The position numbers and the translations under genes were made by a program. Shown piece by piece: positions 5,843 to 34,121 of a DNA stretch of 64,000 bases; position 1 is the first letter of the stretch; every line of letters starts with the position of its first letter. Under the pieces are notes generated by a model, which was not told the DNA's origin, searched no databases, and was given only the letters and a program-made list of their open reading frames with translations. The DNA is taken from assembly GCF_055900595.2 (NCBI RefSeq), contig NZ_CM148325.1; one strand, 5' to 3'.

Positions 5843-7822
5843 ATGTTTAGGTTTAACCCCTTCGTACGGGTCGGGCTGTGTTTGTCCGCTATTTCTTGTG
5901 CATGGCCTGTGTTAGCGGTCGATGATGATGGCGAAACGATGGTTGTCACTGCATCTTCCGTTGAGCAAAACCTTAAAGATGCACCCGCCAGTATCAGCGT
6001 CATTACCCAGGAAGACCTGCAGCGAAAACCGGTACAGAATCTGAAGGATGTCCTCAAAGAAGTGCCTGGCGTACAACTGACGAACGAAGGGGATAACCGT
6101 AAGGGCGTTAGTATTCGTGGTCTTGACAGCAGCTACACCCTGATTCTCGTCGACGGTAAACGCGTTAACTCCCGCAATGCCGTCTTCCGCCACAATGATT
6201 TCGATCTGAACTGGATCCCGGTCGATTCCATCGAACGTATTGAAGTGGTCCGTGGCCCGATGTCGTCGCTGTACGGTTCCGATGCGCTCGGCGGTGTCGT
6301 GAATATCATCACCAAAAAAATCGGTCAGAAATGGTCGGGTACCGTTACTGTCGATACCACCATTCAGGAACATCGCGATCGCGGTGATACCTATAACGGT
6401 CAGTTCTTTACCAGCGGACCATTAATTGACGGCGTGCTGGGAATGAAAGCTTACGGCAGCCTGGCAAAACGTGAAAAGGATGACCCACAAAACTCAACGA
6501 CCACCGATACCGGAGAAACGCCGCGTATTGACGGATTCTCCAGCCGCGACGGCAATGTGGAATTTGCCTGGACACCGAATCAAAATCACGATTTTACTGC
6601 CGGATACGGTTTTGACCGTCAGGATCGTGATTCCGACTCGCTGGACAAAAACCGCCTGGAACGTCAGAACTACTCCGTCAGCCATAATGGGCGTTGGGAT
6701 TACGGCACCAGCGAACTGAAATACTACGGTGAGAAAGTCGAAAACAAAAATCCTGGCAACAGCAGCCCGATTACTTCCGAAAGCAATACGGTCGATGGTA
6801 AATACACGTTGCCACTGACGGCGATTAATCAGTTTGTTACGGTTGGCGGTGAATGGCGTCACGACAAACTTAGCGATGCAGTAAACCTGACCGGAGGAAC
6901 AAGCTCCAAAACGTCTGCCAGCCAGTACGCGCTGTTTGTGGAAGATGAATGGCGGATCTTCGAGCCGCTGGCGCTGACGACCGGCGTGCGTATGGACGAT
7001 CACGAAACCTACGGTGAACACTGGAGTCCTCGTGCCTACCTGGTTTACAACGCCACCGACACCGTAACGGTGAAAGGGGGCTGGGCAACGGCATTTAAAG
7101 CGCCTTCTCTGTTGCAACTTAGCCCTGACTGGACGAGCAATTCCTGCCGTGGCGCATGCAAGATTGTGGGTAGCCCGGATCTGAAACCTGAAACCAGCGA
7201 AAGTTGGGAGCTGGGGCTTTACTACATGGGTGAAGAAGGCTGGCTGGAAGGGGTTGAATCCAGCGTGACCGTTTTCCGCAACGATGTAAAAGATCGTATC
7301 AGCATCAGCCGTACGTCTGACGTCAATGCTGCTCCGGGCTACCAAAACTTTGTCGGTTTTACAGCGGACGGTGTGCCAGTATTCAGCTACTACAACGTTA
7401 ACAAAGCACGTATTCAGGGCGTGGAAACCGAACTGAAAATTCCGTTCAACGATGAATGGAAACTGTCGATCAACTACACCTACAACGATGGTCGTGATGT
7501 CAGCAACGGCGAAAACAAACCGTTGTCCGATCTGCCGTTCCATACTGCTAACGGTACGCTGGACTGGAAACCGCTGGCGCTGGAAGACTGGTCATTCTAT
7601 GTTTCCGGACACTATACCGGGCAGAAACGCGCCGACAGCGCGACGGCTAAAACTCCGGGCGGTTATACCATCTGGAATACCGGCGCGGCCTGGCAGGTGA
7701 CCAAAGACGTCAAACTGCGTGCGGGCGTGCTGAACCTTGGCGACAAGGATCTCAGTCGTGACGACTACAGCTATAACGAAGACGGACGTCGTTACTTTAT
7801 GGCAGTGGATTATCGCTTCTGA
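5843..7822 (+). CDS. cirA: TonB-dependent catecholate siderophore / colicin IA-IB receptor CirA
   Basis: 659 aa ORF with signal peptide [25 protein letters not shown], TonB-box region, C-terminal ...AVDYRF. Confidence 0.95.
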
Positions 7823-26290: not shown

Positions 26291-27199
26291 CTAATTCTGC
26301 TGTAAAAAGTGCAGAAACTGACTTAAAGCATAAGAAGGCGTTTCGTTATTACGCCAAAACACACCGACGCTGCCTTTCTGTTCAATCTTTGGCAGGTTGA
26401 GGATCACCAGTTGCCCCTGGCTGGCATAACGTTGCGCCAGGCGTAATGACAAAATAGAGATCATATTGCTGCTTTGTAACAGGTTGGTACTGACGTTCAT
26501 CGACGCCGACTCAATCGTGTTTTCTGGCAGCATCACGCCGTGGTCTACCAGCGCATTATCAATGCTGATGCGGATGGGGGTACCTGTCGGCCAGACTATC
26601 CACCGCCAGTTAGCAAGATCATTCCAGCTGAGGGTGGCGTATTTCGCCAGTGGATGCTCAGGACGGGCGACAAAGCATACCGGCTCGGTGTAGAGCACGC
26701 GATAATTCAGCGGCAGCTGCAACGCGCGACCGCCAATTCGCCCAACCACCACATCGATAGAACCTGCCAACAGATCTTGCAGCAATGGGGTCATCACCTT
26801 CTCTTCGATATTCAGGTGTAGAGTTGGCATCTCCTTGAGCAAATGCAAAATCGCCTGGGATACGCAGTCAGTGGCGACGGGAGAACAGCCAATTTTCAGA
26901 CTGCCGACCAGTCCACCTTGTTTAAAGCGAGCCAGTTCATATTGCGATCTTTCCATGTCATTGATTAACCGTTGGGCATGTTGCAATAACAATTTGCCGC
27001 CTTCAGTAGGACGAAGTCCTTTGCTGTGCCGCTCAAAAAGTGTGAGTTCGATCTCATCTTCGAGTTGTGACAACCATTTCGACAGCGCAGGCTGGGTGAT
27101 ATTCATCATCCGCGCGACATGGGTCAGATTGCCCTGTTCACCCAGCGCCACCAGCATTTGCAGGTGATGTAGTTTTAGTTTTTGCGCCCAGTTCGCCAT
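26291..27199 (-). CDS. mhbR: LysR-family regulator of the 3-hydroxybenzoate/gentisate cluster
   Basis: HTH LTHVARMMNITQPALSKWLSQLE; start placed at MANWAQ (ATG 27197-27199) preceded by GGAGG; divergent from catabolic operon. Confidence 0.75.
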   Translation of the reverse strand: MANWAQKLKLHHLQMLVALGEQGNLTHVARMMNITQPALSKWLSQLEDEIELTLFERHSKGLRPTEGGKLLLQHAQRLINDMERSQYELARFKQGGLVGSLKIGCSPVATDCVSQAILHLLKEMPTLHLNIEEKVMTPLLQDLLAGSIDVVVGRIGGRALQLPLNYRVLYTEPVCFVARPEHPLAKYATLSWNDLANWRWIVWPTGTPIRISIDNALVDHGVMLPENTIESASMNVSTNLLQSSNMISILSLRLAQRYASQGQLVILNLPKIEQKGSVGVFWRNNETPSYALSQFLHFLQQN

Positions 27200-27325
27200 T
27201 TGCCATAACCTCCAGGTTATCTCTCTGTCCGAAATGCCATTGTACATCTCATCTCTTTAATTACATTATCGCAACATACATAAAACAAAAGAAACATCTA
27301 CCTTACCTGCACTGAGGCATTTACT

Positions 27326-28684
27326 ATGACTCAACGACGTGATTTACAAGCACTGATCGATGCTGCTCCGGTCGGCAAGATGCAGTGGCGCGTTATCATC
27401 TGCTGTTTTCTGGTGGTAATGCTCGATGGTTTTGACACCGCGGCTATCGGATTTATCGCCCCTGATATTCGCACTCACTGGCAACTCACCGCAGGCGATC
27501 TCGCCCCGCTTTTTGGCGCGGGTCTGCTGGGATTAACCGCAGGCGCACTGCTTTGTGGCCCGTTGTCCGATCGCTTTGGTCGCAAGCGGGTGATTGAGCT
27601 GTGCGTCTTTTTGTTTGGCGCGTTAAGCCTCGCCTCGGCTTTCTCACCGGATCTGCAAACGCTGGTCTTCCTGCGCTTTCTCACCGGCCTGGGTCTGGGC
27701 GGCGCGATGCCGAACACCATCACCATGACCTCGGAATATCTGCCTGCCCGCCGCCGAGGCGCGCTGGTGACGCTGATGTTTTGCGGCTTTACGCTGGGTT
27801 CGGCGTTTGGCGGGATTGTCAGCGCACAGCTGGTGCCGGTGATTGGCTGGCACGGCATTCTGGTGTTGGGTGGCGTGTTACCGCTGATGCTGTTTGTCGC
27901 ACTGCTGGTAGTTCTGCCGGAATCGCCACGCTGGCAGGTGCGCCGCCAGCTACCGCAGGCGGTGATTGCGAAAACCGTCAGCGCCATCACCCGCGAGCGT
28001 TATGTCGATACCCACTTTTATCTCATTGAATCAGCCTCCGTTACAAAAGGCAGCATTCGTCAACTGTTTATGGGACGTCAGTTACCCATCACGTTGATGT
28101 TGTGGGTAGTGTTCTTTATGAGCCTGCTGATTATTTACCTGCTCTCAAGCTGGATGCCGACGCTACTGAACCATCGCGGCATCGACCTGCAACACGCGTC
28201 CTGGGTCACCGCCGCGTTCCAGATTGGTGGTACGTTAGGCGCGCTGGCGCTGGGCGTGCTGATGGATAAGTTCAATCCTTTCCGCGTGCTGGCGCTGAGC
28301 TATGCCGTAGGCGCTGTATGCATCGTGATGATTGGCTTAAGCCAGGATGGATTATGGCTGATGGCGCTGGCGATTTTCGGCACCGGCATTGGCATTAGCG
28401 GATCTCAGGTGGGGTTGAACGCGTTGACCGCAACGCTCTACCCAACGCAAAGCCGCGCCACGGGCGTGAGCTGGTCAAACGCCGTAGGCCGCTGCGGCGC
28501 GATTGTCGGCTCGCTTTCTGGCGGCCTGATGATGGCGATGAATTTCTCTTTCGACACCCTGTTTTTCATTATCGCTGTGCCCGCGGCGATCAGTGCGGTG
28601 ATGTTAAGCCTGCTGATCACCGTGGTTCGCCAGTCGACCTCTGTCCCTGACTCACTGCCTCGCGCAGGCATTGTGAACGAATAA
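27326..28684 (+). CDS. mhbT: MFS aromatic-acid transporter (3-hydroxybenzoate/gentisate transporter-like)
   Basis: 452 aa; MFS signature [12 protein letters not shown]; first gene of operon. Confidence 0.75.
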
Positions 28685-28695
28685 GGAGCATCCTA

Positions 28696-29724
28696 ATGAC
28701 TGATAACAATCAAAAAAGCCGCGAGCAATTTTATCAGCATATTTCCGGGCAAAACCTGACCCCGCTGTGGGAGTCACTGCACCACCTGGTGCCGAAAACG
28801 CCCAACGCCAACTGTGCGCCAGCGTACTGGAATTATCAGGAGATCCGCCCGCTGCTGCTGGAGAGCGGCAGCCTGATTGGCGCGAAAGAAGCTGTGCGTC
28901 GTGTGCTGGTACTGGAAAACCCGGCGCTGCGCGGGCAGTCTTCCATCACCGCGACTTTGTATGCTGGTTTGCAACTGATCATGCCGGGCGAAGTGGCACC
29001 GAGTCATCGTCATAACCAATCGGCGCTGCGTTTTATTGTTGAAGGCAAAGGGGCATTTACCGCCGTTGATGGCGAACGCACGCCAATGAATGAGGGCGAT
29101 TTTATCCTGACCCCACAATGGCGCTGGCACGATCACGGTAACCCTGGCGACGAACCGGTTATCTGGCTCGATGGGCTGGATCTGCCATTAGTGAACACTC
29201 TGGGCTGCGGTTTTGCCGAAGATTACCCGGAAGAGCAACAACCGGTAACGCGTAAAGAGGGCGATTATCTGCCACGTTACGCTGCCAATATGTTGCCGCT
29301 GCGCCATCAGACCGGGAACTCCTCACCCATCTTTAACTACCGTTATGACCGTAGCCGCGAAGTGCTGCACGATTTAACCCGCCTGGGCGATGCCGATGAG
29401 TGGGATGGCTACAAAATGCGCTACGTCAACCCGGTCACCGGCGGCTATCCGATGCCGTCGATGGGCGCTTTCCTGCAACTGCTGCCGAAAGGGTTCGCCT
29501 CACGCGTGGCGCGTACTACTGACAGCACCATCTATCACGTGGTGGAAGGCGACGGGCAGGTCACTATCGGCAATGAAACCTTCAGCTTTAGTGCAAAAGA
29601 TCTCTTTGTGGTGCCGACCTGGCACGGCGTGTCGTTCCAGACCACGCAAGATACCGTTTTATTCAGTTTTTCGGACAGACCGGTACAAGAAGCCCTGGGG
29701 CTGTTCCGCGAAGCGCGTTATTAA
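28696..29724 (+). CDS. mhbD: Gentisate 1,2-dioxygenase (bicupin)
   Basis: 342 aa; cupin His motifs ([13 protein letters not shown]..., [10 protein letters not shown]); RBS AAGGAG. Confidence 0.8.
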
Positions 29725-29739
29725 TTTGGGAGAGAGAAA

Positions 29740-30441
29740 ATGACTCAATATGTATTCGAACCACAAGCGCCCGTTACCGTACCGGTTGTTGGCGGTGATG
29801 AACAATTCCCCGTGCGCCGCGTTTACTGCGTCGGGCGTAACTATGCCGCCCACGCCCGCGAAATGGGCTTTGATCCGGATCGTGAACCCCCCTTCTTCTT
29901 CTGCAAACCAGCAGATGCCGTTGTTCCGGTCGCCGCTGGCGAAACGCTGGCGCTGCCGTATCCGGCGCAGACCGATAACTATCATTACGAAATTGAACTG
30001 GTGGTGGCGATTGGTAAAAAGGGCAGCGATATCCCACTGGAAAAGGCCCATGAATATGTCTGGGGTTATGCCACAGGCCTTGATATGACGCGCCGGGACC
30101 GTCAAATGGAAATGCGTCAGATGGGCCGCCCGTGGGAAATCGGCAAAGCATTTGATCTCTCGGCCCCCATCGCACCGCTGCACAAAGCCAGCGAAACCGG
30201 CGGTATTGATAACGCACCAATCTGGTTACAGGTAAACGGTGAAGATCACCAGCGCAGCGATATTCGTCATCTCATCTGGTCAGTGAATGAAACCATCAGC
30301 TACCTGTCAGGCTTCTTTGAACTGCAACCGGGCGATCTGATCTTCACTGGTACGCCAGAAGGGGTGGGCCCGGTAGTGAAAGGTGATGTGATCACGGGCA
30401 ACGTCGAGGGCTTAACCCCTATCGCGGTGAAGATTGTCTGA
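29740..30441 (+). CDS. mhbH: Fumarylpyruvate hydrolase (FAH family)
   Basis: 233 aa FAH-family protein [41 protein letters not shown]. Confidence 0.75.
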
Positions 30442-30446
30442 GGTGC

Positions 30447-31094
30447 ATGATGAAGCTGTACAGTTTTTTTAATAGTTCAGCATCGTACCGGGTACGCATT
30501 GCGCTGGCGCTGAAAGGCATTAATTACCAGACCGAAGGGGTGAATATCCGTATTGGTCAGCAAAATGAACTGGCCTATCGGCGGATGAATCCTGTCGGGC
30601 TGGTGCCGACGCTGCTGACTGACGAGGGCGAGTCACTCGGTCAGTCGCTGGCGATTATTGACTGGCTGGATCGTCACTACCCGCAAGTTCCGCTGGTGCC
30701 GCAGGAAGAACCGGCCCGCAACAAGGTGCTGGAAATTGTCTATGCCATCGCTTGTGATATTCATCCATTGAATAACCTGCGCGTGCTGCGCTACCTGACC
30801 GAAGAGCTGAACGTCAGTGAAGAAGAGAAAAAACGCTGGTATGCGCACTGGATCCAGCAAGGGTTAAGCGCGGTGGAACAGCTACTGCGCCAGAGCCAGT
30901 CGGGGCAATTTTGTGTGGGTGAGACGCCGACGCTGGCAGACTGCTGCCTTGTTCCGCAGTGGGCGAACGCGCTACGTATGAACTGCGATCTGAGTGGATA
31001 TCCGCGCTGCAAAGCGGTGTACGACGCCTGCACACAACTGCCAGCGTTCATTGCCGCAGCGCCAGAAAATCAACAAGATAAAATTTCAGCCTGA
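30447..31094 (+). CDS. mhbI: Maleylpyruvate isomerase (GST-zeta-like)
   Basis: about 214 aa GST-fold MKLYSFFNSSASYRVRIALALKGINY; start could be 30447 or 30450. Confidence 0.75.
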   Translation: MMKLYSFFNSSASYRVRIALALKGINYQTEGVNIRIGQQNELAYRRMNPVGLVPTLLTDEGESLGQSLAIIDWLDRHYPQVPLVPQEEPARNKVLEIVYAIACDIHPLNNLRVLRYLTEELNVSEEEKKRWYAHWIQQGLSAVEQLLRQSQSGQFCVGETPTLADCCLVPQWANALRMNCDLSGYPRCKAVYDACTQLPAFIAAAPENQQDKISA

Positions 31095-31108
31095 CCAGGA
31101 GAACCATA

Positions 31109-32302
31109 ATGACTAAAGTGACACGCGCAGTAATTGTGGGAGGCGGGATCGGCGGTGCGGCAACTGCGCTGTCACTGGCCCGCCAGGGGATCAAAGTGGT
31201 GCTGCTGGAAAAGGCGCATGAGATCGGTGAGATCGGCGCAGGCATCCAGTTGGGGCCAAACGCGTTTTCGGCGTTGGATAGTCTTGGTGTTGGCGAAATC
31301 GCCCGCCAGCGCGCGGTGTTTACCGATCACATCACCATGATGGATGCGGTGAACGCCGAAGAAGTGGTGCGTATTGAAACCGGGCAGGCCTTTCGTGACC
31401 ATTTCGGCGGCCCTTACGCGGTGATCCATCGCGTTGATATTCATGCCTCGGTATGGGAAGCGGTACTGACGCATCCGGACGTGGAGTATCACACCTCCAC
31501 AAACGTCGTTGATATTCGCGAGACGCCGGACGATGTCACCGTTTTCGACGATCGAGGTAATAGCTGGAGCGGCGATATTTTGATTGGCTGTGATGGCGTG
31601 AAGTCAGTGGTGCGCCAGAGCTTATTAGGCGATGCGCCGCGCGTCACCGGTCATGTGGTCTACCGTGCGGTTATCGATTGTGCGGATATGCCGGAAGATT
31701 TACGTATTAATGCGCCGGTATTGTGGGCGGGTCCGCACTGTCACCTGGTGCATTATCCTTTGCGCGGCGGCAAGCAGTATAACCTGGTGGTGACATTCCA
31801 CAGTCGCCACCAGGAAGAGTGGGGCGTGAAGGATGGCAGTAAAGAGGAAGTGCTCTCTTACTTTGAAGGGATTCACCCCCGTCCGCGCCAGATGCTGGAT
31901 AAACCGACTTCATGGCGACGCTGGTCAACCGCTGACCGTGAACCGGTGGCGAAGTGGGGAACGAAGCGCATAACGCTTGTGGGCGATGCGGCTCATCCGG
32001 TGGCGCAATATATGGCACAAGGTGCCTGTATGGCGCTGGAAGATGCAGTAACGCTGGGTAAGGCGCTGGCGCAGTGTGAGGGTGATGCGGCGCAAGCTTT
32101 TGCGCTGTATGAGTCGGTACGTATTCCGCGTACCGCGCGCATCGTCTGGTCGACCCGTGAAATGGGGCGGGTTTATCACGCCGCAGGGGTAGAACGTCAG
32201 GTACGTAATCTGCTGTGGAAAGGGAAATCGCAGGCAGAGTTTTATCGCGGCATGGAGTGGCTGTACGGCTGGAAAGAAGATAACTGTCTGCAACCACGCT
32301 GA
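31109..32302 (+). CDS. mhbM: 3-hydroxybenzoate 6-hydroxylase (FAD-dependent aromatic monooxygenase)
   Basis: 397 aa; FAD-binding VIVGGGIGGAATALSLARQGIKVVLLEK and GDAAHP motif. Confidence 0.8.
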   Translation: MTKVTRAVIVGGGIGGAATALSLARQGIKVVLLEKAHEIGEIGAGIQLGPNAFSALDSLGVGEIARQRAVFTDHITMMDAVNAEEVVRIETGQAFRDHFGGPYAVIHRVDIHASVWEAVLTHPDVEYHTSTNVVDIRETPDDVTVFDDRGNSWSGDILIGCDGVKSVVRQSLLGDAPRVTGHVVYRAVIDCADMPEDLRINAPVLWAGPHCHLVHYPLRGGKQYNLVVTFHSRHQEEWGVKDGSKEEVLSYFEGIHPRPRQMLDKPTSWRRWSTADREPVAKWGTKRITLVGDAAHPVAQYMAQGACMALEDAVTLGKALAQCEGDAAQAFALYESVRIPRTARIVWSTREMGRVYHAAGVERQVRNLLWKGKSQAEFYRGMEWLYGWKEDNCLQPR

Positions 32303-32317
32303 GTACTTCTTACCCAA

Positions 32318-32378
32318 TCAGGTGCACGGACGGTCCCCTCGCCCCTTTGGGGAGAGGGTTAGGGTGAGGGGAAAAATC
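32318..32378. repeat. GC-rich imperfect palindromic repeat (BoxC-like)
   Basis: CCCCTCGCCCCTTTGGGGAGAGGGTTAGGGTGAGGGG; family assignment from memory only. Confidence 0.35.
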
Positions 32379-32420
32379 TTGCCCGAATTAATCAGTAAGT
32401 CAGTTTGTCTGCAAACACCA

Positions 32421-32448
32421 GAGGCGCTAACATAGCGCCTCATTTTTG
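32421..32448 (+). terminator. Hairpin plus T-run (terminator of mhb operon and/or IS200 left-end read-through terminator)
   Basis: GAGGCGCT-AACAT-AGCGCCTC followed by ATTTTTG. Confidence 0.65.
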
Positions 32449-32590
32449 TGCACAGAAAACCCCCAGCTAGGCTGGGGGTTCCGGAAAGCTTTCAGCTTTG
32501 AGCCAGTTATTAAAACCCCTTTTGATTTGTTAAAACACCTTGCGGTCTGGCAACTGCAAGTGTCAAACAAGAAATCAAAAGGGGGTCCCA

Positions 32591-33049
32591 ATGGGGGACG
32601 AAAAGAGCTTAGCGCACACCCGCTGGAACTGTAAATATCACATAGTTTTTGCGCCGAAATACCGAAGACTGGCGTTTTACGGAGAGAAGCGTAGGGCGAT
32701 AGGCAGTATTTTGAGAAAGCTGTGTGAGTGGAAAAGCGTACGGATTCTGGAAGCAGAGTGCTGCGCAGATCATATCCATATGCTTGTGGAAATCCCACCC
32801 AAAATGAGCGTATCCGGCTTTATGGGATATCTGAAAGGGAAAAGCAGTCTGATGCTTTACGAGCAGTTTGGGGATTTGAAATTCAAATACAGAAACAGGG
32901 AGTTCTGGTGCCGAGGGTACTATGTCGATACGGTGGGTAAGAACACGGCGAAGATACAGGACTACATAAAGCACCAGCTTGAAGAGGATAAAATGGGGGA
33001 GCAGTTATCGATTCCATATCCGGGCAGCCCGTTTACGGGCCGTAAGTAA
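32591..33049 (+). CDS. tnpA: IS200 transposase TnpA (HUH/Y1)
   Basis: MGDEKSLAHTRWNCKYHIVFAPKYRRLAFYGEKRRAIGSILRKLCEWKSVRILEAECCADHIHMLVEIPPK...; ORF track start lies further upstream. Confidence 0.9.
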   Translation: MGDEKSLAHTRWNCKYHIVFAPKYRRLAFYGEKRRAIGSILRKLCEWKSVRILEAECCADHIHMLVEIPPKMSVSGFMGYLKGKSSLMLYEQFGDLKFKYRNREFWCRGYYVDTVGKNTAKIQDYIKHQLEEDKMGEQLSIPYPGSPFTGRK

Positions 33050-33173
33050 CGAAGTTGAATGCAAATGTCAGATCGTATGCGCCTGTTAGGGCACGGCTGG
33101 TAACAGAGCCTTACAGGCGCATTTGAAAAACCTCCGGCTATGCCGGAGGATATTTATTTTTGCGGGTGATGAT

Positions 33174-34121
33174 ATGCGTGTGTTACTGGCACCGATGGAG
33201 GGTGTACTCGACTCTCTGGTGCGTGAATTGCTGACCGAAGTTAACGACTACGATCTGTGCATCACCGAGTTTGTCCGCGTGGTGGATCAACTGCTGCCGG
33301 TAAAAGTTTTTCATCGCATTTGCCCGGAGCTACAAAACGCCAGCCGAACGCCATCCGGTACGCTGGTGCGCGTGCAATTGCTGGGGCAGTTCCCACAATG
33401 GCTGGCAGAGAACGCCGCCCGTGCGGTGGAGTTAGGTTCCTGGGGTGTGGATCTTAATTGCGGCTGTCCGTCGAAAACGGTTAACGGTAGCGGCGGCGGG
33501 GCGACACTACTCAAAGATCCTGAACTCATCTACCAGGGTGCAAAAGCGATGCGTGAAGTTGTACCGGCGCATTTGCCCGTCAGTGTGAAAGTGCGTCTGG
33601 GCTGGGACAGCGGTGAGAAGAAATTTGAAATCGCCGATGCGGTTCAACAGGCTGGCGCTACGGAGTTGGTGGTGCATGGGCGGACAAAAGAGCAGGGGTA
33701 CCGCGCGGAGCATATTGACTGGCAGGCGATTGGCGAGATTCGCCAACGGCTGAATATTCCGGTGATTGCCAACGGTGAAATCTGGGACTGGCAGAGCGCG
33801 CAACAGTGTATGGCGATCAGCGGCTGTGACGCGGTGATGATTGGTCGCGGAGCGCTCAATATTCCCAATCTGAGCCGAGTGGTAAAATATAACGAACCGC
33901 GAATGCCGTGGCCGGAGGTGGTTGCTTTGCTACAAAAATATACCCGTCTGGAAAAGCAGGGCGATACTGGGTTATATCACGTTGCGCGGATTAAACAGTG
34001 GTTGAGTTATTTGCGTAAAGAATACGATGAAGCAACGGAATTATTTCAGCATGTTCGGGTGTTGAATAATTCCCTTGATATTGCAAGGGCTATTCAGACC
34101 ATTGATATCGAGAAACTCTAA
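33174..34121 (+). CDS. dusC: tRNA-dihydrouridine synthase C
   Basis: [36 protein letters not shown]... (315 aa from ATG 33174); Dus family. Confidence 0.92.

Follow-up and report, generated by a model that had tools for sequence, protein, structure and literature searches.

IS200 of Salmonella enterica and E. coli encodes a single transposase of 152 amino acids, TnpA, in about 707-711 bp. It has no inverted terminal repeats, and it carries a left-end hairpin, a stem-loop in which the Shine-Dalgarno sequence is masked, and the STnc490/art200 region. The left-end terminator, the Shine-Dalgarno-sequestering stem-loop, art200/STnc490 and the 5'tnpA small RNA (sRNA) have each been described (PMC4513863; PMC5435999; 10.1101/2024.06.26.600842). 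We analysed a stretch of 64,000 nucleotides (the window) from contig NZ_CM148325.1 of RefSeq assembly GCF_055900595.2, in which an element lying between a gentisate cluster and dusC has all of these features and shows no structural difference from the described IS200. We conclude that it is an IS200 and that it very probably entered, with no apparent duplication of its target, the T-tract of a terminator-like hairpin in the native dusC leader of an E. coli strain carrying a gentisate island. IS200 and its regulatory anatomy are already known; what is corrected here, relative to an initial annotation made from the sequence alone, is the boundaries of the element, its catalytic residue and its role as an island marker.

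IS1541 of Yersinia pestis and Y. pseudotuberculosis belongs to the IS200 group, is about 85% identical to IS200 and has the same organisation; it differs in its high copy number in Y. pestis. Of 14 IS1541 sites that Odaert et al. looked at in Y. pestis in 1998, 8 reportedly had terminator-like stem-loops, which the authors are said to have proposed as hot spots. IS1541 also expresses STnc490 (PMC4513863), and in Yersinia a copy lies between pheL and pheA, where other enterobacteria have the pheA transcription-attenuation signals (PMC3082878). Within the literature open to full-text search, our queries combining IS200 or IS1541 with terminator or target terms returned no explicit statement of terminator targeting and no general rule.

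IS608 and ISDra2 serve as mechanistic models of this family. The TnpA of IS608 binds subterminal hairpins on one strand, and on its 5' side each hairpin has a tetranucleotide that pairs with the cleavage sites; the circle of single-stranded DNA that is excised then enters the lagging-strand template 3' of a target tetranucleotide (PMC5934647; PMC6006769). IS608 of Helicobacter pylori and ISDra2 of Deinococcus radiodurans share with the window element a homologous Y1 HUH TnpA and subterminal hairpins; both use 4-nt guides, retain the target at the left flank, make no duplication and insert into the lagging-strand template (PMC5934647; PMC6006769). Unlike the window element they contain tnpB, and their targets (TTAC, TTGAT) have no reported need for a neighbouring hairpin, whereas the target in the window is a T-rich ...TT a few nucleotides 3' of a host hairpin. 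The known analogue of terminator homing is found in group IIC (bacterial class C) introns, which insert just 3' of Rho-independent terminator stem-loops or attC sites and read structure together with a very short stretch of sequence (PMC7923331). Their likeness to IS200 is confined to target choice, since they are ribozyme/reverse-transcriptase retroelements of unrelated sequence and chemistry. RAYT (TnpA-REP) proteins have a related Y1 fold, and the window TnpA scores 30 bits against NCBIfam REP_Tyr_transpos, below the cutoff of 80. Both RAYTs and IS200 are associated with intergenic hairpins (PMC3333891); however, RAYTs are single-copy domesticated genes flanked by REPs, while the hairpins beside IS200 are mutually unrelated and form no repeat family.

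We aligned the window with annotated E. coli IS200 copies at the dusC site (L001), between fdnI and yddM (L002) and, in a prophage, between lom and a tail-fibre gene (L003). Homology among these four copies at three loci was confined to G32448-T33158, and all complete copies measured 709-711 bp between these ends. The alignment of independent copies, together with the empty sites, gives a window element of 711 bp, GTGCACAG...GGATATTTATT. Its termini match those of the other copies, and its limits are therefore fixed at 32448 and 33158, in place of the 32410-33160 proposed initially. Comparison with the uninterrupted dusC upstream region revealed the insertion site, which consists of the following host features:

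32421-32441, plus strand: terminator-like hairpin GAGGCGCTA-ACA-TAGCGCCTC, the insertion target in the native dusC leader and no part of the element
32442-32447, plus strand: A followed by five T, the 5' part of the split T-tract, whose last T's are the left cleavage/target site (T7 in the empty site)
33159-33161, plus strand: TTT, the remainder of the host T-tract on the 3' side of the element, from the empty-site comparison

The hairpin has a 9-bp stem with 6 G:C pairs and a loop of 3, and in the empty site it is followed by A and T7. The same hairpin, A and T7 are present in the empty sites L004 and L005 and in K-12. Because these genomes carry it before dusC, the hairpin at 32421-32441 is host DNA and not the 5' end of the element, for which the initial annotation had taken it. 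At the fdnI-yddM and prophage loci its counterparts are unrelated hairpins with a T-run. We found that the empty sites read GAGGCGCTAACATAGCGCCTC-A-TTTTTTT-GCGGGTGATGAT-ATG, where ATG is the dusC start; that is, hairpin, A, T7, GCGGG. In the window the junctions read T5, element, TTT-GCGGG, and in L001 they read T7, element, GCGGG, which is exact with respect to the empty site and without duplication. The L001 copy is annotated as IS200C; between it and the window copy, 29 of 711 positions differ. IS200C occupies the same T-tract, at a different register, in 6 other genomes, and the sequences indicate that the T7 tract was struck twice, independently, by diverged IS200 variants.

The association between the left end and a terminator-like hairpin was surveyed at 75 unique left junctions of IS200 relatives, taken from one genome per species plus viral contigs and covering Enterobacterales, Vibrio, Sutterella, Clostridia, Negativicutes and prophages. 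Hairpins were called with an RNAfold-based procedure, with other TTTT runs in the same loci and random positions as controls. This call replaced a perfect-stem finder with a crude orientation filter, whose 51/63 was an undercount with right-end hairpins mixed in. We found a terminator-like hairpin with a T-rich tail in 69 of the 75 left flanks (92%); for other TTTT runs the share was 27.8%, and for random positions 3.9%. When the minimum free energy (MFE) was required to be -15 kcal/mol or lower, the figures were 76%, 1.9% and 0.1%, respectively (Fisher p = 1e-73). Median MFE of the 40-nt flank was -18.9 kcal/mol at IS200 left ends, -5.2 at TTTT runs and -6.2 at random positions. The left flank ended in TT at 63 of 75 junctions, and its last four bases were TTTT in 36, TATT in 8, TGTT in 7 and TCTT in 6. 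The distance from the last G:C pair to the junction was most often 6 nt and fell between 5 and 9 nt at 60 of 75 sites, and the order on the top strand was always hairpin, T-run, left end. Thus IS200-group left ends are strongly associated with terminator-like hairpins, from Enterobacterales to Clostridia.

We also considered that the hairpin might be carried along by the element. This is rejected, since copies follow hairpins of unrelated sequence, also where they share a genome: a single Colibacter genome has three copies after three unrelated hairpins (L077-L079). At one surveyed locus (L121; IMGVR_UViG_2814123192_000002, about 6163-6900) there is a direct tandem, in which the left end of one copy adjoins the ...GGATATTTATT of the other. 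Separately, we noted decayed copies that lack the usual upstream terminator; two are truncated inside the left-end hairpin (L007 and L011, from Citrobacter youngae and Enterobacter sp.) and one is internally deleted (L014, from Vibrio plantisponsor).

The layout of the window element is that of IS608: a pair of similar hairpins, each with AAAA(A) immediately on its 5' side, a host T-run at the left cleavage site, and a right end that finishes in TATT. The features concerned are:

32456-32459, plus strand: candidate left guide AAAA, directly 5' of the core left-end stem, its role assigned by analogy with IS608 (PMC5934647)
32458-32480, plus strand: left-end hairpin AACCCCCAGC-TAG-GCTGGGGGTT, from the fold and from Rfam STnc490 model positions 1-23, presumed to bind TnpA
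33131-33149, plus strand: right-end hairpin CCTCCGGC-TAT-GCCGGAGG, identical in all copies whatever the flank and resembling the left-end hairpin
33150-33158, plus strand: right-end tail ATATTTATT, whose final TATT is the presumed right cleavage site; homology stops here in every copy

The left hairpin stands 10 nt from the left end and the right hairpin 9 nt from the right end, on the same strand and without terminal inverted repeats. Their stems are alike (CCCCCAGC/GCTGGGGG on the left, CCTCCGGC/GCCGGAGG on the right). The right-end hairpin, which has AAAAA (33126-33130) directly 5' of it, scores as terminator-like on both strands, and (G)AAAA 5' of the left hairpin is kept in nearly all 75 surveyed elements. 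In the Clostridia relatives L026 (1071, 1729) and L029 (1058, 1725) the right-end hairpin has nearly the same sequence as the left-end one, for example AACCACGCGATAGTCGCGTGGTT and AACCACGCGTTAGACGCGTGGTT, so that the two are more alike there than in the E. coli element.

Given the IS608-like layout, pairing of AAAA guides with T-rich targets is a natural inference. By analogy with IS608 and ISDra2, TnpA would bind both subterminal hairpins on the top strand, and the AAAA 5' of each would act as a guide, pairing with the host T-run on the left and with TATT on the right. A single-stranded circle would then integrate 3' of ...TT on the lagging-strand template, typically 5-9 nt past the host G:C stem. 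Since GC skew of the plus strand, on which tnpA lies, is positive over almost the whole window, the top strand of the element would have the sequence of the lagging-strand template, as judged from skew at this one locus. Presence/absence polymorphism at the site and near-identical copies at different loci are consistent with TnpA-dependent excision and integration through such a circle.

The hairpin beside the T-run is not explained by a 4-nt guide rule. Mimicry of the right end by a single-stranded terminator is the best available idea: the geometry of host hairpin and T-run would resemble that of the element's own right end, where a hairpin precedes a 9-nt T-rich tail with TT as its last bases. 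It is quite possible, although we hold it only tentatively, that the IS200 group is terminator-homing and that TnpA or the synaptic complex recognises a host hairpin with a T-rich tail because it mimics the right end. The tandem copy at L121 fits this idea. If it is true, a structure-reading layer would lie on top of the 4-nt guide rule of IS608.

A different explanation of the enrichment is survivorship, in which IS200 inserts at T-rich tetranucleotides almost anywhere and only neutral insertions behind terminators persist. Natural copies are indeed survivors; IS200 transposition is very rare and old insertions dominate (PMC4513863), coding-sequence insertions have been selected in the laboratory (hisD984, PMC4513863), and 28% of ordinary TTTT runs in the surveyed loci also follow some hairpin. 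However, neutrality would permit any intergenic position and both orientations, whereas the junctions actually seen fall within the T-tract or at its end, keep one fixed orientation and, at 60 of 75 sites, are 5-9 nt away from the stem. It would also have to accommodate two diverged IS200 variants arriving independently in the same 7-nt tract, and a dusC site that precedes a ribosome-binding site and is not obviously neutral. We consider survivorship as the whole explanation unlikely.

Several points weigh against insertion into the T-tract and terminator homing as we propose them. The flanking T's total 8 in the window (32443-32447 plus 33159-33161) but 7 in the closest empty sites and K-12, and a strictly precise insertion does not predict the extra T. 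It could come from slippage in the homopolymer, from a T8 allele missing from the sample, or from right-end cleavage that was one base off at the previous donor site. In the survey, 6 of the 75 junctions fail the terminator criteria; 5 of them still have a hairpin, and L069 is weak. The guide role of AAAA is assigned by analogy, and AAAA is invariant in the survey, leaving no variation to set against the target. The targeting step is likewise a proposal for IS200. Insertion of IS200 into a coding sequence is known (hisD984, cited in PMC4513863), so a hairpin is not obligatory, and survivorship could add to the enrichment.

The element contains tnpA only, without tnpB, and tnpA is its sole open reading frame (ORF) with a family match:

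32591-33049, plus strand: tnpA, 152 amino acid Y1 HUH transposase, from Pfam, NCBIfam and homologues in the PDB; HUH is H61-I62-H63, with Y125 and Q129

TnpA matched Pfam Y1_Tnp with E = 9e-37 over model positions 2-121 of 121, and NCBIfam transpos_IS200 (NF033573) with 144 bits against a cutoff of 55. It is homologous to proteins of solved structure, including the TnpA proteins of ISHp608 (E = 3e-19) and ISDra2 (5e-16). The initial annotation had described an IS200-family element encoding a 152 amino acid Y1 (HUH) transposase with HIHML and RGYYV motifs, and this is borne out by the family matches and by the close copy in E. coli strain 144 described below. Both motifs are present (amino acids 61-65 and 108-112), and TnpA is neither truncated nor frameshifted. 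Y125 and Q129, in IQDYIKHQ, align with the Y...Q of the solved structures 2EC2 and 2F4F. This alignment indicates that the catalytic tyrosine is Y125 and does not lie in RGYYV. A Y125F TnpA was the catalytically dead control construct of Ellis 2015 (PMC4513863). The element is thus an ordinary intact IS200 of the TnpA-only group of the IS200/IS605 family.

We found that the window copy is 1-2 nt apart from the annotated E. coli copies L002 and L003. From the fdnI-yddM copy of E. coli strain 144 it differs by 1 nt (33093), and the two proteins are identical, which argues for recent movement within E. coli. An IS-free junction, with the monooxygenase gene of the gentisate cluster next to dusC, was present over at least 80% of its length in 503 of 5,426 complete E. 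coli genomes, and in 8 of those 503 the flanks were 589/590 identical to the window. IS200 stood at this site in 6 of the 5,426 genomes, in every case as IS200C, 4% diverged; the window's own variant was not found at this exact site in that set.

The sRNA region is fully conserved in the window copy, which would suit a domesticated relic: an immobile copy with no recent move, whose relevant product is RNA (the 5'tnpA sRNA, art200). Against this, the relatives with flanks 589/590 identical are without the element, a copy 1 nt different lies at another locus, and the ORF is intact, as are its catalytic residues and the two ends of the element. Mobility and a role as RNA could moreover go together. 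We regard a relic as distinctly improbable.

The gene for 3-hydroxybenzoate 6-monooxygenase ends at 32302 and the element begins 145 bp past its stop codon, so that its placement just past the gentisate cluster was correct. It had also been said to mark the island boundary, which does not hold, given the 503 genomes with an IS-free junction and the fact that hairpin, T-tract and dusC are common to K-12, which is without the gentisate island. Seen from the 32421-32441 hairpin, the junction of the island is on the left and the element on the right, the core side shared with K-12. By these comparisons the element is a recent, polymorphic addition and no marker of the island boundary.

Within the window, the gentisate / 3-hydroxybenzoate cluster (26291-32302) consists of a regulator-sized ORF and a transporter-sized ORF, followed by ORFs ordered as in L001 and L004, where the order is gtdA, a fumarylacetoacetate-hydrolase family gene, maiA and the monooxygenase gene. 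Its neighbours are dusC on one side and, on the other, ORFs that correspond in size and order to yohK and cdd of K-12, and it stands where K-12 has an intergenic region of 238 bp between yohJ and dusC. A G+C-rich intergenic repeat, GGTCCCCTCGCCCCTTTGGGGAGAGGGTTAGGGTGAGGGG (32325-32378), which we take to be BoxC-like, separates the stop codon of the monooxygenase gene from the dusC-leader hairpin. The IS-free composite query matched about 8 places per E. coli genome, and the repeat is therefore dispersed; it is absent from L001-type island strains.

On the other side of the element lies:

33174-34121, plus strand: dusC, tRNA dihydrouridine(16) synthase, NCBIfam PRK10550 (693 bits), with the start as annotated in L004 and K-12

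From the end of the element to the dusC ATG (33174) there are 15 nt, which carry the ribosome-binding region, rather than the 50-60 bp first proposed. A consensus scan of 32200-33300, including the right end of the element, gave no sigma-70-like promoter, which is a weak negative. In K-12, where dusC is uninterrupted (L086 2890-2980, minus strand), a terminator-like hairpin and T7 lie 15 nt before the ATG; this stretch corresponds to window positions 32421-32447 plus 33159-33173. A second hairpin, GAGGGATTGC-AGTT-GCAATCCCTC, lies upstream of the terminator-like one. We found no sigma-70-like promoter between the K-12 leader hairpins and dusC, and no Rfam family match in the K-12 dusC leader. 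The uninterrupted leader looks like a leader terminator or attenuator. Since a terminator-like hairpin stands 15 nt ahead of the ATG even in the empty site, the native arrangement is itself unusual and the baseline is not a simple promoter, so the net effect of the element on dusC cannot be predicted.

In the window the host hairpin, with its tail T5-G-T, is followed by the left-end hairpin, tnpA, the interior palindrome and the right-end hairpin. tnpA of IS200 is weakly expressed and multiply repressed, and the left-end hairpin is a bidirectional terminator (PMC4513863). Insertion would have left the host terminator largely intact (T5 then GTG), and this terminator and the element's own left-end hairpin would shield the element from incoming transcription. 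At the other end, the right-end hairpin and its T-rich tail would rebuild a terminator-like signal before dusC. It is reasonable to suppose that the element separates dusC from upstream transcription signals, and that dusC transcription probably depends on read-through.

The structured ends described in the initial annotation were real as hairpins and wrongly assigned at both ends. All four hairpins that it named exist and fold much better than shuffled sequences (z = -6.5, -4.3, -6.1). Its anatomy, with an element running from about 32410 to about 33130, the upstream hairpin as its own 5' end and the CCTCCGGC hairpin with T-run as host DNA, could draw on the hairpin and T-run seen at each side in the sequence and on the terminator described in the left end of IS200 (PMC4513863), but it is almost certainly wrong. 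Empty sites and K-12 have the upstream hairpin too, and the other two loci have unrelated hairpins in its place; the terminator described in the left end (nt 12-34) corresponds to the CCCCCAGC hairpin; and the CCTCCGGC hairpin, which empty sites lack, does not vary between copies. The hairpin placed at 33131-33160, between element and dusC, is in fact the right end itself, 33131-33149 plus ATATTTATT, constant in all copies. Read alone, the sequence thus tempts one to swap the host terminator and the real right end, which misplaces both ends by about 30 bp.

Inside the element we identified three further features:

32516-32584, plus strand: stem-loop of the tnpA 5' untranslated region (5'UTR) pairing the Shine-Dalgarno sequence AAGGGGGT (32579-32586), from the fold and the Rfam structure
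32510-32599, minus strand: predicted feature over the left end of tnpA, from homology to the description in PMC4513863 and the RF01405 match
33077-33122, plus strand: interior imperfect palindrome ATGCGCCTGT...ACAGGCGCAT, 3' of tnpA, from the fold and conserved in E. coli copies

The left-end hairpin lies at element nt 11-33 and is the counterpart of the bidirectional terminator described at the left end of IS200 as nt 12-34 (PMC4513863). The 5'UTR stem-loop lies at element nt 69-137, the counterpart of the nt 69-138 element in the same paper (PMC4513863). Rfam RF01405 (STnc490) matched in full length at 32458-32581, which is the left end plus the tnpA 5'UTR, with 146.4 bits against a gathering score of 56. 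This match is on the tnpA-sense strand, whereas Ellis 2015 places STnc490/art200 antisense to the tnpA 5'UTR (PMC4513863); the model may have been built on the opposite strand. The sole difference from the strain 144 copy (33093) falls in the inner part of the interior palindrome.

The locus itself is of little consequence, being a known element at a polymorphic site before a non-essential tRNA-modification gene. The breadth and precision of the terminator association are the only point of wider interest, and in principle the association is probably not new. If terminator homing is true, these sites would be a safe harbour for the element, with the host terminator preserved and one rebuilt at the right end. 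The survey suggests that structure, an intrinsic-terminator hairpin with a T-tract, guides site choice by the smallest autonomous bacterial transposon. Such a choice would explain why IS200 copies are intergenic and well tolerated, and would make IS200 a simple system for structure-guided integration of single-stranded DNA.

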